From assembly GCA_963835065.1 (NCBI GenBank), contig CAWIEK010000049.1:96001-160000 (forward strand): a stretch of 64,000 nt of DNA. The letters run 5' to 3'. This DNA comes from an uncultured Chthonomonadaceae bacterium. Its GTDB lineage: Bacteria > Armatimonadota > Chthonomonadetes > Chthonomonadales > Chthonomonadaceae. Both the position numbers and the translations under genes were made by a program. The notes under the pieces are model-generated. The model made no database searches and had not been told where the DNA came from. It was given only the letters and a program-made list of their open reading frames with translations. Below are positions 48,734 to 53,169 of the stretch, in pieces. Position 1 is the first letter of the stretch. Each line of letters begins with the position of its first letter.

Positions 48734-49928
48734 GTGGACTCAACGGAACAGGACGGGACGCGGAGGATACTGGCGGGCAGGATGGCGGATGCGCAGGGTG
48801 AGCGAAGCCGCATGGCTGTCTCAGTCGCTAATGGCAAAATCGTCAGTTTGGAGCCATGGAACGACGCGACACAGGGCGGAACCGGGCGATCTGGATGCCC
48901 GCGATGCGCTGCTGCTGCCGGGGTTTATTGATATTCATATACATGGCGGAGCAGGGCGGTATGTGATGGAAGGCACGGAGGACGCGCTGACGGGGATTGC
49001 TTCGCATTTAGCGACGCATGGCGTTACCGGCTTTTTGGCAACTACTGTCACCGCGCCGTGGGAACAGCAGGCGCAGGCGCTTGCCACAACCGCCCGAATG
49101 ATGTCAGCGCAAACGAGCAGAAACGCGAACGATGCTTTAGGCGCGCGGATTTTGGGCTGTCATCTGGAAGGGCCGTACATCAATCCGAAGCGAAAAGGAG
49201 CGCAGCCGGAGCAGTTTGTGCGCCTGCCGGATGTGGCGGAACTGGAACACTGGTGCGGTGACAATTTGAGCGCGGTTCGCGTGGTCACACTTGCGCCGGA
49301 AATGCCGGGCGGGCTGGAACTGACGCGGTTTCTGGCAGGACGCGGGATTGTGCCCTCTATCGGGCATACAGACGCGACTTACGCGCAGATGGAAGCGGCG
49401 ATTGATGCCGGGGCGCGGCACGTCACGCACTGCTTCAATGCCATGCGTCCCTTAGAGGGACGCGAACCGGGCGTCGTGGGCGCAACATTCGCGCGCCCGG
49501 AACTGACGGCGGAATTGATCTGGGACAACATTCACGTTCACCCGTCAAGCTGCCGCGCCTTGATAAACGCGAAAACAGCGGAGCGCGTAATCTTGATTTC
49601 AGACGGCATACCGGGCGCGGGCATGGGCGACGGGTACCAATTCTCGCTTGGCGACTTGAAGATTGTCGTCAACGAAGGCTCCGCGCGCCTGCCGGATGGA
49701 ACCCTCGCCGGCAGCGTACTGACATTGGAAAAGGCGTTCGCCAACGCCACCCCCTTTTCCCTGCCCGAACGCGCCCGCATGACTTCCTACAACGCGGCAG
49801 TCGCGCTTGGATTAGGACACCGCAAAGGACTATTGCGCCCCGGCTACGATGCCGATTTAGTCCTTCTAAATGCGGATGGCAGCGCGCGGGAGACGATTGT
49901 TTTAGGGGAAGTAGTCAGAAGACAGTAG
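48734..49928 (+). CDS. nagA: N-acetylglucosamine-6-phosphate deacetylase; +1 frameshift near 48874
   Basis: PGFIDIHIHG, CHLEGPY..KGAQ, TLAPE, IGHTDA, THCFNAM, LAGS. Confidence 0.9.
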
Positions 49929-50039
49929 TCAGTAGTCAGTAGAAATGCCTGTCTACTCAGATCTGTGTTGTAAAGTAAAACTTTGCTGGTATGAGGCTAC
50001 TGACTACTGACTACTGTCTTCTGACTACTTCCCCTAAAA
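49900..50039. repeat. 43-bp perfect inverted repeat with a (GTAGTCA)n core, overlapping both convergent stop codons
   Basis: 49900-49942 versus 49997-50039. Confidence 0.95.
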
Positions 50040-50349: not shown

Positions 50350-50478
50350 TGTGGTTTCTCCTTTAGAACAGGCAGATAAGATAGCGTCGAGTTTTAAGTA
50401 ACAAGGGTGTGGAAACAACGTCTCTTTTAGTATAGATTAGTCTTTGTAGAATTGTCAAGCATCAGAAGAGGAGTAGAT

Positions 50479-51567
50479 ATGCCGGAAAAAAATTACAGCA
50501 AGGTTTGCCTTCAAGAAGACGTCGCGCCGAACCGGCGTGACTTTCTGCGAACAGTAGGGCAGGCTGTCGGGGGCATCGCGCTTGGAAGCGCATTGGCGGG
50601 CGCGACATCGGCGTTTGCGCAGGACAAGGCCGCCGTTGCGCTGACGGCGGGCGCAAAGCCCATTCAGGCGGAAACGCTGGTGAAAACGCTGTTTGACAGC
50701 CTGACGCCCGAACAAACCGCGCAGGTGTGCATGCCCTGGGAACACGCCAAACGCAGCATGGTGCAGGCCAACTGGGGCATTGTGAAAACCAACATCGGCC
50801 AGCAATTCAATGCGGACCAGCAGGAGATGATACGGGGTATTCTGCGCGGCCTGACGACCGAGGAGTGGTATCCCAAAATCACAAAGCAAATGGAAGGCGA
50901 TGCGGGCGGGCTGCAAAACTATTATGTGGCGCTGTTCGGAACGCCCAAGTCCGGCAAGTTTGAGTTCGTGCTGACCGGGCGGCATGTGACGCTGCGCGCG
51001 GACGGACATTCCGACCAGAACGCGGCGTTCGGCGGGCCGATCTTCTACGGCCATGCCGTGAAAGAAACAGAAAACCCGGACCATGCAGGCAACATCTACT
51101 GGCAGCAGTCCGTAAAGGCAAACGCCGTGTTCAGTGCGCTGGACGGCAAGCAGCGCGCGGTTGCACTGCTGGACAAAGCGCCGGAGGAAAGCAAGATAGA
51201 TTTGCAGGGCGCAAATGGAATGTTCCCCGGCATTGCGATTGGCGAACTGGCGCGGGATCAAAAGGCGCTGGTGAAATCCGTGATGCGCGATCTGCTGTCA
51301 CCGTACCGCCCCTCCGACGCCGATGAAGCGATGCGCGACATTGCGGCCAATGGCGGGCTGGACAAAGTGCATCTGTCGTTTTACAAGCAGGACGACCTGG
51401 GCAATGACGGCGTGTGGGACATCTGGCGGCTGGAAGGGCCGGGCTTGGTGTGGCATTTCCGGGGAGCGCCGCATGTGCATACCTGGGTGAATGTCGTCAA
51501 GGATGCCGAAACTCTCGGACGCGCATACGTAAAGTTGGCGGACGGCGCTGCATGTAATGTTTTGTAG
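50479..51567 (+). CDS. DUF3500 protein with Tat signal; true stop probably 51532 if G51508 is an error
   Basis: NRRDFLR; YYVALFGTP, GRHVT, GGPIFYGH, WRLEGP..FRGAPHVH. Confidence 0.8.
   Translation: MPEKNYSKVCLQEDVAPNRRDFLRTVGQAVGGIALGSALAGATSAFAQDKAAVALTAGAKPIQAETLVKTLFDSLTPEQTAQVCMPWEHAKRSMVQANWGIVKTNIGQQFNADQQEMIRGILRGLTTEEWYPKITKQMEGDAGGLQNYYVALFGTPKSGKFEFVLTGRHVTLRADGHSDQNAAFGGPIFYGHAVKETENPDHAGNIYWQQSVKANAVFSALDGKQRAVALLDKAPEESKIDLQGANGMFPGIAIGELARDQKALVKSVMRDLLSPYRPSDADEAMRDIAANGGLDKVHLSFYKQDDLGNDGVWDIWRLEGPGLVWHFRGAPHVHTWVNVVKDAETLGRAYVKLADGAACNVL
51359..51532 (+). repeat. Direct repeat copy 1 (3' end of the DUF3500 gene)
   Basis: Aligns to 52625-52797 with 11 substitutions and 1 indel. 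Confidence 0.95.
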
Positions 51568-51748
51568 GGGCGCAATTTATTGCGCCCTTTGTCATGCTTG
51601 CGCCCTTCATCTTGATTACTGCGCCCTCACAAGGCGGCGGTAGTCTCTCAGTTGCGGTAGATTGTGAGCGTGAGGCGCATATTATAGGCGTGTGGTAGAT
51701 TGCGGGCGTGATGCATCACCGCCGGTACACATTATTTGAACGGTATTG
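51564..51748. repeat. GTAG-type REP element with TTGAACGGTATTG end
   Basis: GTAG-GGGCGCAATTTATTGCGCCC; terminal motif shared with the 41278 and 56830 elements. Confidence 0.7.
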
Positions 51749-51751
51749 CTC

Positions 51752-52162
51752 TTAACCTCTTGTAGTCGCCAGATCGGATGATTTACGAACGGAGTGTGGC
51801 TTGGCGTTGCCGGATGCAGACACGCGAGTAATGTTTGCCACCGTCACACCGCGTTGTTCGGAATTCGCGGCAGGAGTAACGACAATCTGAACGTTGCAGC
51901 CCAGCGCGTTCAGGAACCTTAACAGGCGGTCATAGGTAAAGTGTGTCAACTGCCCACGCCTGATAGCCGAAATTTTGGATTGGGCCGTACCGAGCAATGT
52001 CGCTGCTTGAGTTTGTGTTAAACCCTGTTCGCGGATCAAGCGCGTAATTTCAATCGCTAAATCGGTTTTTGCCAGTTCTTCCTCCGCGTCAGGGATGGCA
52101 AGGTCGGCAAAGACGTTGCTGGAAGATTTTTCAAACGTAACGTTCTCGCTAGTGTTGCTCAT
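51752..52162 (-). CDS. XRE-family HTH antitoxin (HigA-like)
   Basis: SSNVFADL..K..L..I..GLTQTQAA.LLG..QSKIS..RLLRFLNALG. Confidence 0.85.
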   Translation of the reverse strand: MSNTSENVTFEKSSSNVFADLAIPDAEEELAKTDLAIEITRLIREQGLTQTQAATLLGTAQSKISAIRRGQLTHFTYDRLLRFLNALGCNVQIVVTPAANSEQRGVTVANITRVSASGNAKPHSVRKSSDLATTRG

Positions 52163-52593
52163 TGCTTTCCTTCTTGCTTTTGCTCGGCCTGCTCATAATG
52201 CGCGGCATAGTGGGCTTTTGCGGCTTGCAGGCGGGTTTTTACAAGTTCAATATCTGATTGTGGCGTCGCAATACCGGATTTGGACTTCTTCATAAAAACG
52301 TGCAGCACATACACGGCCTTTTCAAATTTAGCTGCATATACGCACCGGTAAGTGTCACCATCATTACTCACGCGCAGTTTCATTACTTCGCTGGCTGACG
52401 AACCCTCTGCCGGGGTCGCGCCTTCCGGCGTTTCGCGCTTCTGTACCTGCCGCAACTGAAAACCGAACCGGCGGCGTACCGATTCCGGCATTTCAAGCAT
52501 TTCGGAACGGGAACCCGAAGCAAACTGAAGTTCCTTATCTGCTGGAGGTATCAACGGTATAGGAACTACGGTTTCGGAACGTTTTTTCCTCAT
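52159..52593 (-). CDS. RelE/ParE-superfamily toxin (HigB/Gp49-like)
   Basis: GFQLRQVQ, TYRCVY, VYVLHVFMKKSKSGIATP.SDIEL..RL; ATGA overlap with the antitoxin, toxin-first order. Confidence 0.85.
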   Translation of the reverse strand: MRKKRSETVVPIPLIPPADKELQFASGSRSEMLEMPESVRRRFGFQLRQVQKRETPEGATPAEGSSASEVMKLRVSNDGDTYRCVYAAKFEKAVYVLHVFMKKSKSGIATPQSDIELVKTRLQAAKAHYAAHYEQAEQKQEGKQ

Positions 52594-52624
52594 AGCTTAT
52601 TATACCAAATAAGTAATAAATTTA

Positions 52625-52797
52625 TGGACAAAGTGCATCTGTCGTTCTACAAGCAGGACGACTTGGGCAATGACGGCGTGTGGGACATCTGGCGTTTGGA
52701 AGGGCCGGGTTTGGTGTGGCATTTCCGGGGAGCGCCGCATGTGCATACCTGGGTGAACGTCGTCAAGGATGCCAAGTTGTCGGACGCCCATACGTAG
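52625..52797 (+). repeat. Direct repeat copy 2 (detached DUF3500 3' end; in-frame ATG at 52624 gives a 57-aa ORF)
   Basis: MDKVHLSFYKQ...KDAKLSDAHT*. Confidence 0.95.
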
Positions 52798-52830
52798 AGT
52801 TTACATTTACAGCAGTCTTGATTGCCGTGA

Positions 52831-52871
52831 AGAAACCGCGCCTCGAAGGTACACTTCGAGGCGCGGTTTCT
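52831..52871. terminator. 18-bp-stem hairpin, probable bidirectional terminator
   Basis: AGAAACCGCGCCTCGAAG-GTACA-CTTCGAGGCGCGGTTTCT. Confidence 0.7.
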
Positions 52872-52902
52872 ATAGGAGGCTGAGGGTAGTCTTGAAGAAG
52901 GA

Positions 52903-53169
52903 CTACTTGGTGGCTTTGGAGCCGACGCCGCCGTCCGCAGGTCCATTGAAGTTCGGGTTGATGCCGATTGTCGCGCCGCCACCGGAGGAAGGGGCGGCAG
53001 CGTCTTTCTTCGCCGGATTATCGGAGGTGGTTGTACCGGTCGCCGGCGTGGTTGCCGCAGGCGTTGTGGTTCCACTGCTCGATGAGTCCGTATCGCTTTT
53101 GCCGCCACAGCCGATCATCGCGACACTGACAATCCCACACAAGAGCAAAGCAAAGATGCGAGTTTTCAT
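52903..53169 (-). CDS. Small lipoprotein downstream of a DUF1559 gene
   Basis: MKTR..AMIGC lipobox; Ser/Thr/Pro-rich. Confidence 0.75.
   Translation of the reverse strand: MKTRIFALLLCGIVSVAMIGCGGKSDTDSSSSGTTTPAATTPATGTTTSDNPAKKDAAAPSSGGGATIGINPNFNGPADGGVGSKATK

Follow-up and report, generated by a model that had tools for sequence, protein, structure and literature searches.

A toxin-antitoxin pair between two synonymously diverged copies of a DUF3500 gene end, probably gained from a related strain by homologous recombination

In an Escherichia coli conjugation assay for homology-facilitated illegitimate recombination (HFIR), 56 of the 60 events described were single crossovers of truncated, recircularised molecules, and the duplications reported from that assay measured 109-950 bp (PMC3240628). 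The model set out in PMC5361080 for type VI secretion system (T6SS) effector-immunity arrays and Rhs loci is one of 3'-end displacement, in which the old end is left as an orphan, and the account of prophage integration in icd given in PMC3603311 has the 3' end of the gene duplicated with its length unchanged. Here we describe a locus in which the 3' end of a DUF3500 gene occurs twice, on either side of a toxin-antitoxin (TA) pair, within a 64,000-nt stretch of DNA from an uncultured bacterium; this whole stretch, hereafter the window, covers positions 96001-160000 of contig C49 of the assembly G000 (8.0 Mb in 71 contigs, 92% complete, 3.7% contamination), and positions given below without a contig are those of the window. 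The analysis followed up an original prediction, made from the sequence alone, which had read the locus as a TA element that enters a protein-coding gene by a single crossover and regenerates it.

The repeat was established by pairwise alignment and with a repeat finder (family D1, spacing 1266), and the features of the locus are collected in Table 1. The two copies of the gene end form a direct repeat 1266 nt apart and are identical at 162 of 173 positions, with a longest identical run of 47 nt, and they are set apart by 11 substitutions and by one extra G, at 51508 in copy 1. All ten differing codons are synonymous, the TAA/TAG stop codons included, and once G 51508 is dropped the same 57 residues, DKVHLSF...KDAKLSDAHT*, are obtained from both copies. 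DUF3500 orthologues were found in 10 relatives, and since the closest of them, in G002, also ends in ...KDAKLSDAHT*, this is the native end of the protein. As assembled, the DUF3500 open reading frame (ORF) overruns the native-type stop codon (51530-51532) and acquires a different 22-residue tail, ending ...KDAETLGRAYVKLADGAACNVL*. In the pairwise alignment the homology sets in abruptly at TGGACAAAG and ends 4 nt past the stop codon, from where the sequences downstream of copy 1 and copy 2 are unrelated.

The exclusively silent divergence was assessed with a neutral simulation in which 11 changes (8 transitions and 3 transversions) were placed at random in 2,000,000 sets. An all-synonymous outcome was obtained in none of them, and the analytic estimate of its probability is about 5e-7. 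When the changes were polarised with G002, G001 and G021 as outgroups (the first two belonging to the same genus), derived states were found on both copies. Both observations together argue that each copy evolved under selection as a working gene end, in separate lineages, and on this evidence copies 1 and 2 were functional alleles of different lineages.

Between the two copies lie only a 28-nt spacer, repeats resembling repetitive extragenic palindromic (REP) elements, the TA pair and an AT-rich stub, and the TA genes are the only sizeable ORFs. Within the repeats, 51561-51606 is a multi-copy hairpin unit with at least 36 further genomic places (40 of 99 candidates scored), and a second repeat family, with matches of 76-84% in the genome, includes 51653-51761. 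The toxin gene precedes the antitoxin gene in the operon, the toxin TGA and the antitoxin ATG overlapping as ATGA (52159-52162), and the GC content of the TA genes, 0.51, is lower than that of the flanks (0.57-0.60). Neither the NCBIfam nor the PADLOC models gave a match to the toxin. On the minus strand the stub reads TGGTATAAT at 52607-52599, which by eye resembles a putative extended -10-like box 5 nt ahead of the toxin ATG; a consensus promoter scan of 51300-53000, requiring both hexamers, returned no site. The module is an intact type II, HigBA-like pair with predicted toxicity and neutralisation, and there is nothing unusual in it. No recombinase or transposase family was found in the 1.27-kb insert with the ORF list and Pfam profiles.

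In all these respects the original prediction held. Alignment and repeat finder confirmed the duplicated DUF3500 end with its 11 silent substitutions and extra G, and translation the common ...KDAKLSDAHT* of both copies without that G; ORFs and Pfam confirmed that only a REP-like element and a toxin-first HigBA-type pair, with no integrase or transposase, lie between them. The strong hairpin claimed after copy 2 was recovered with its 18-nt arms, located between the convergent DUF3500 and small lipoprotein genes, in an 88-nt stretch with a folding energy of -43.4 kcal/mol (z = -6.85). The argument that purely silent divergence speaks against ordinary duplication and decay was borne out by the simulations.

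The TA cassette is single-copy in G000, where one 43% paralogue occurs, and no near-identical cassette was seen when genome and metagenome collections were scanned with the toxin. Related TA loci in other genomes and metagenomes numbered 39; in 31 of them the toxin match was followed by an antitoxin match within about 70 nt, and a DUF3500 gene stood next to none of the 39. A distant homologue of the TA pair was observed at an unrelated locus of G001 (G001:C2:5442417-5445485), with a toxin ORF that is apparently N-terminally truncated.

The native state of the locus was sought in relatives and in metagenome runs of other strains, among which X1 and X2 served only as proxies for the native allele and X3 and X4 added nothing at the DUF3500 locus. 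A 1604-nt contig of X1, a biocrust metagenome, aligns with 50400-51492, where 1093 nt show 52 differences (about 95% identity), and then jumps exactly 1266 nt to 52759-52871, thus presenting an empty site, hairpin included. The joint is ambiguous over 15 nt, from 51492-51507 in copy 1 to the matching point 52759-52774 in copy 2, and the tail of the contig, AAA CTG TCT GAC GCC CAT ACG TAG AGTTTA, gives one gene end followed by the downstream sequence of copy 2. Judged by its sequence, this contig is from a different strain and is no excision product. The comparison with empty sites that had been proposed with the original prediction found an empty DUF3500 site in the X1 contig and showed the downstream context of copy 2 to be native.

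Neither G002 nor G001 has a TA pair after DUF3500; there the gene is followed by REP and/or hairpin and then by the same downstream DUF1559 gene, and in G002 the order after the stop codon is about 30 nt, a REP-like unit and an analogous terminator hairpin. A 188-nt contig of X2 leads from the gene end through a diverged spacer to the REP that follows copy 1, and part of the TA pair (52011-52243) is present in X2 too, about 95% identical. From the arrangements in X1, X2 and G002 it follows that each of the two downstream contexts is the native one in some lineage, the hairpin being found only after copy 2 and the spacer with REP after copy 1. As the spacer and REP of copy 1 resemble what natively follows DUF3500 in other lineages, the donor DNA would have been a fragment of a related strain's chromosome and no autonomous element.

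The distribution of alleles along the two copies was then compared with these proxies. At the six left sites (51381-51492) copy 1 agrees with X1 at five of six and with X2 at four of four, while copy 2 agrees with X1 at one of six and with X2 at none of four. At the five right sites (51511-51532) copy 1 matches X1 at two and X2 at one, copy 2 matches each of them at three, and the right end of copy 1 equals G002 at all five. The left part of copy 1 and the right end of copy 2 therefore look like the local population, and the left 134 nt of copy 2 look foreign. With two metagenome contigs and a weak right side to go by, the copies look like reciprocal hybrids, as a Campbell-type single crossover predicts, and the simplest account would be one exchange between 51492 and 51511, involving an X1-like recipient and a uniformly diverged donor that contributed the left of copy 2 and the right of copy 1.

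This pattern modifies the original prediction in several points. Copy 2 had been taken as the displaced original end, which stands for its native downstream context and fails for its left 134 nt, where it departs from X1 at five of six and from X2 at four of four sites. The cassette had also been supposed to bring a functional replacement end; two functional alleles are indeed indicated, but the left part of copy 1 matches the population proxies and would not have been imported. Finally, a crossover inside the repeat, as postulated for a single-crossover TA element that regenerates the gene, fits the allele pattern, but a self-propagating element found no support, the cassette being single-copy.

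We consider the locus to be probably the product of a homology-driven gain from a relative, either by a Campbell-type single crossover or by one homologous and one illegitimate join. The donor would have been the chromosome of a related strain that carried DUF3500, spacer, REP and TA pair in this order. A fragment of it, reaching from about codon 298 of DUF3500 through the spacer, REP and TA genes to 31 nt upstream of the toxin start, would have been circularised or illegitimately joined, creating the joint J2 at 52624/52625, and a RecA-type homologous exchange with the resident gene would have taken place between 51492 and 51511. Most likely, the fragment would have formed a circle, a presumed intermediate, and entered by one Campbell-type crossover; alternatively, one end may have entered by homology and the other illegitimately. 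Either way an intact DUF3500 gene would have been rebuilt and the 5'-truncated copy 2 left downstream. The TA pair would be the cargo, and its addiction effect may counter-select loss of the cassette through recombination between the repeats.

The genome-wide screen for cargo between duplicated gene ends that had been suggested with the original prediction was positive. It was carried out as a self-BLAST of the genome, whose hits were filtered for direct repeats 80-800 nt long that occur no more than twice, with one copy within a long ORF; this gave 140 pairs, reduced to 75 and then to 28 before individual loci were inspected. The same footprint, an intact gene with cargo right after its stop codon and then a 5'-truncated copy of the gene end with its own stop, was found at 12 or more loci of G000, that on C49 included (Table 1); 11 were aligned to the stop codon, and the locus on C5, cut by a contig end, is additional. 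Repeat lengths differ from locus to locus. At ten loci (C37 was left out, as an indel shifts the frame count) 80 of the 101 differing codons are synonymous, the stop codons of the two copies differ in 7 of the 11 aligned loci, and the cargo has a GC content at least 0.03 lower than its flanks in 8 of these 11.

Table 1. Features of the DUF3500 locus (positions in the window) and target genes and cargo of the loci of G000 that carry the same footprint
Feature	Positions	Strand	Details
DUF3500 gene as assembled	50479..51567	+	ATG 50479 (ORF list: TTG 50452); Pfam PF12006, E 8e-20
Copy 1, last 57 codons and stop of the intact gene	51359..51532	+	174 nt; extra G at 51508
28-nt spacer, then REP-like dispersed repeats	51533..51751		
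Antitoxin gene, XRE-type HTH_37, 136 aa	51752..52162	-	PF13744, E 5e-24, profile positions 1-79 of 80
Toxin gene, Gp49/DUF891, RelE/HigB-like, 144 aa	52159..52593	-	PF05973, E 4.3e-20, profile positions 2-89 of 90
AT-rich stub, toxin start to copy 2	52594..52624	-	31 nt, GC 0.16; outer edge is the novel joint J2 (52624/52625)
Copy 2, 5'-truncated DUF3500 3' fragment with own TAG stop	52625..52797	+	173 nt
Native terminator-like hairpin 3' of DUF3500	52831..52871		18-nt arms, 100% complementary, 5-nt loop (repeat finder, I5)
Locus on C49, target DUF3500			cargo: Gp49/HTH_37 TA pair
Locus on C5, target AcrB-type pump			cargo: ParDE (cut by contig end)
Locus on C31, target UvrA-like			cargo: PIN/VapBC-like pair
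Locus on C37, target TIM-barrel enzyme			cargo: Septu PtuA/PtuB
Locus on C54, target RecA			cargo: HNH and TmtA-like
Locus on C65, target GalT			cargo: MerR and type IIG fragments
Locus on C68, target DnaA			cargo: 7.7 kb
Locus on C20 (second copy on C8), target lactate permease			cargo: nuclease-like gene
Locus on C11, target caspase-WD40 gene			cargo: HEC-01
Locus on C42, target subtilase			cargo: two small genes
Locus on C63, target AcrB-type pump			cargo: three genes
Locus on C60, target FkbM methyltransferase			cargo: one gene

Direct repeats of 59-147 nt also stand on both sides of 5 of the 39 related TA loci found in other genomes and metagenomes. One of these, on a deltaproteobacterial metagenome-assembled genome (MAG; L041, 3815-3889 and 5336-5410), carries this footprint outside the phylum of G000: a related TA pair and one further gene lie between two copies (90.7% identity) of the final 75 nt of an alpha/beta-hydrolase gene. 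On a metagenome contig (L053, 519-665 and 1646-1791) a related TA pair was observed inside a 147-nt non-coding direct repeat of 98.6% identity, which closes with a terminator-like hairpin and T-run and could have arisen by duplication of the end of a gene for a small RNA.

Further repeats were observed within G000. A pyruvate phosphate dikinase (PPDK)-type 3' end occurs three times on C63 (128133-128315, 130056-130368 and 133701-134041), as an intact gene and two downstream fragments (97% and 91%), and each block of cargo has a related gene for 177-185 aa of no known family, so that the locus looks like two stacked insertions. Contigs C8 (384-17792) and C20 (16370-32853) have about 16 kb in common at 98.65% identity, the lactate-permease locus and its displaced fragment included; in the C8 copy the nuclease-like cargo gene is broken by an insertion sequence (IS)-like insertion, and the pair represents strain heterogeneity or a recent segmental duplication. 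Repeats of 327-520 nt in YD/Rhs-repeat genes with downstream fragments (C1:8949-9275/13746-14072 and C3:98703-99221/103667-104186) make up orphan-tip arrays of the classic kind at polymorphic toxin loci of G000. Elsewhere in the window, a perfect 43-nt inverted repeat of 7-nt AGTAGTC-like units with a 54-nt spacer (49900-49942 and 49997-50039) lies between an amidohydrolase-like ORF and clpS.

Recombinase genes are few in the genome (six with PF00589 and two with PF00239). On the window contig the closest of them, a PF00589 gene, is about 285 kb from the locus, the PF00239 genes are on other contigs, and the 12 loci are all more than about 65 kb away from any of these genes. None of the 69 ORFs scanned in and beside the cargo of the other loci encodes a tyrosine or serine recombinase, and one rve-type IS transposase was found outside the recA repeat. 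At the four classes of junction in 11 loci, no shared 6- to 8-mer was detected beyond that in shuffled sequences. The 3' end of recA, duplicated in G000, is single in all four relatives with a full match (G001, G002, G021 and G009), by which it was ruled out as a conserved hot spot. Taken together, the lack of a nearby recombinase, the lack of a shared junction motif and the single recA ends in relatives make a single site-specific system unlikely. A diversity-generating retroelement was also considered and ruled out, as no reverse transcriptase family was found in the interval and the differences are not adenine-specific, A being involved at just 2 of the 11 differing sites.

The extra G at 51508 stands in the context GCC[G]AAAC and is absent from the matching X1 and X2 contigs. 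The sole recA gene of G000 is also broken into two frames by an extra G, in the context CCC[G]AAAT(C) when compared with G002 (C54:62737-62741; loci L075, L087 and L088). Their shared context suggests an assembly error in both, with a real frameshift in recA also possible. The CCGAAA context was not enriched genome-wide (40 against 31 expected; 6 against 4.6). Extra Gs were tested for by ORF merging, by the phase of GC at third codon positions (GC3) and with codon-score frameshift windows, the first two of which proved too unspecific to help.

When islands decay, TA modules are often what survives longest, which would favour a reading of the cassette as the remnant of a site-specific integrative islet, or as a passenger mobilised in trans in the manner of a cis-mobilisable element (CIME), whose integrase targeted the 3' end of DUF3500 and which carried a replacement gene end. 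The topology is that reported for icd, with the 3' end duplicated and ORF length unchanged (PMC3603311), and the repeat homology stops right after the stop codon. However, it is unlikely that the locus arose in this way, as integrases are missing from the insert and from the 69 ORFs in or beside other cargo, the six tyrosine and two serine recombinase genes, none of them nearby, would have to account for at least 12 different targets, the junctions have no common core motif, and the single recA ends of relatives do not speak for a conserved att hot spot. Moreover, with the exchange placed about 134 nt inside the repeat, such an element would carry 134 nt of unneeded homology. A self-propagating, recombinase-free TA cassette, a 1266-bp unit that circularises through its repeats, spreads and re-enters DUF3500 by single crossover while the TA pair enforces its retention, overlaps in mechanism with the homology-driven gain, and its mechanics are equal to those of that explanation. 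The footprint is frequent in G000, and the repeats at 5 of the 39 related TA loci, with the duplicated 75-nt hydrolase gene end among them, would be in keeping with such a cassette. Against it stand the single copy in G000 and the lack of a near-identical one in the genome and metagenome collections; the junction of a circle was not seen, the X1 contig that skips the insert being from a different strain with its 52 upstream differences, and the spacer and REP after copy 1 are like the ordinary chromosomal DNA of a relative. As a one-off acquisition accounts for all observations, we regard the self-propagating cassette as improbable, to much the same degree as the integrative islet.

An event in situ, that is a local tandem duplication or a long target-site duplication at insertion of the TA pair with later decay or gene conversion, would be the simplest source of a direct repeat around an insert. 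A dead copy should, however, gain mostly non-synonymous changes, and what is seen is 11 of 11 synonymous ones, on both lineages; the downstream sequences are unrelated from 4 nt after the stop, and stop codons differ in 7 of 11 aligned loci as they do between orthologues. Such an event is thus very hard to credit. Nearly as implausible is an artefact in which two strain haplotypes of the DUF3500 end were joined in tandem by the assembler. The 71 contigs, the 3.7% contamination, the 98.65% identity of the 16-kb segments of C8 and C20 and the implausible frameshift in the sole recA could be cited for it, but the inner junctions (stop to spacer-REP, and promoter stub to TGGACAAAG) are unique and must exist in real molecules, the copies can be distinguished as their longest identical run is 47 nt, and the same architecture with varied repeat lengths recurs at 12 loci or more and in unrelated public assemblies.

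The homology-driven gain from a relative, which we prefer, has a number of points against it as well. Neither a donor genome nor a circle nor a second insertion site was seen in the genomes and metagenome contigs examined, which come from other strains, and the best relatives of the TA pair reach 57% at the protein level in the genome collection (Capsulimonadaceae MAG) and 67% in metagenomes. The Campbell-type crossover and the one-ended join cannot be separated from sequence because their final products are identical. In the mosaic, the right-hand sites are weakly informative (3/5 against 2/5 and 1/5), site 51397 contradicts the pattern, and population recombination alone could yield such mosaics. 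The contiguity of copy 1, TA pair and copy 2 is as assembled, and the best sequencing run shares 0.15 of words and the other 0.07. The assembled sequence of the sole recA gene is frameshifted, a recombinase may have acted in trans, and a search of the 92% complete genome for Ku, DprA and ComEC found only ComEC, so that neither end-joining nor natural transformation is specifically supported.

If the explanation is true, a large share of the small accessory modules of this lineage (TA pairs, Septu, HEC-01, Tiamat-like) would have entered without the enzyme of a mobile element, by homologous recombination anchored in conserved gene ends, those of recA, dnaA and a uvrA-like gene included. The footprint is easily screened for, as an intact gene, cargo and then a 3' fragment that has diverged synonymously and ends in a stop codon of its own; it dates and orients single events of gene transfer, telling which allele accompanied the cargo, and it could account for "defence islets" that lack an integrase at fixed positions. 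It also calls for caution in annotation, as such fragments would be neither pseudogenes of paralogues nor att sites. Nothing in the literature searched described, as a general pattern in nature, TA or defence cassettes that lack an integrase and are flanked by synonymously diverged duplications of a gene end. A bolder view, which we consider improbable, is that TA and defence islets with gene ends form a class of recombinase-free mobile cassettes that use the last 30-110 codons of the host gene as an 'attachment arm', with RecA-dependent excision as a circle, movement between strains, re-entry that regenerates the gene and cargo that selects against loss, and that this would be a main route of defence-gene turnover in several phyla.

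One known system close to the locus is Campbell-type insertion-duplication, in which a circular molecule with a truncated chromosomal segment enters by one crossover, as seen with laboratory suicide vectors and in PMC3240628. In both, a direct duplication brackets heterologous DNA, and the 173 bp found here fall within the range of 109-950 bp reported there; the gene stays intact if the segment includes its 3' end, and a dedicated recombinase is not needed. The locus shows one homologous segment duplicated around the insert, with outer flanks that are native, and relatives have an empty site. In contrast to the experimental cases, however, this would have happened in nature, in an uncultured soil bacterium that is Armatimonadota-like (a Capsulimonadaceae MAG has the nearest TA locus), with a diverged relative as the donor, whence the synonymous differences, and with a circle that is presumed.

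HFIR and the orphan arrays of Rhs, contact-dependent inhibition (CDI) and T6SS loci, as modelled in PMC5361080, have in common with this locus a conserved upstream anchor, cargo that comes with a fresh gene end and an old end pushed downstream. Such arrays can stack, and the PPDK locus on C63 has two fragments. Those arrays have polymorphic toxin genes as targets, whereas the footprint here is found in ordinary genes (DUF3500, and at other loci recA, dnaA, galT and a uvrA-like gene); the cargo is a TA or defence module and not an immunity gene, and both DUF3500 ends encode the same 57 residues; by its target and its identical ends, a displacement array of the Rhs/CDI/T6SS kind was ruled out.

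The duplication at icd is given as 165 bp. The e14 and phage 21 insertions in E. coli icd, as presented in PMC3603311, resemble the locus in that the 3' end is duplicated with mostly silent differences, the reading frame keeps its length and the working end is provided by the element. Those elements have their own tyrosine integrase and a short core, in contrast to the DUF3500 locus with no integrase and an exchange that would lie deep in the repeat. The cargo itself is like other HigBA-type type II modules, with the toxin gene first, an ATGA overlap, matching Pfam families and a pairing that is conserved in relatives.

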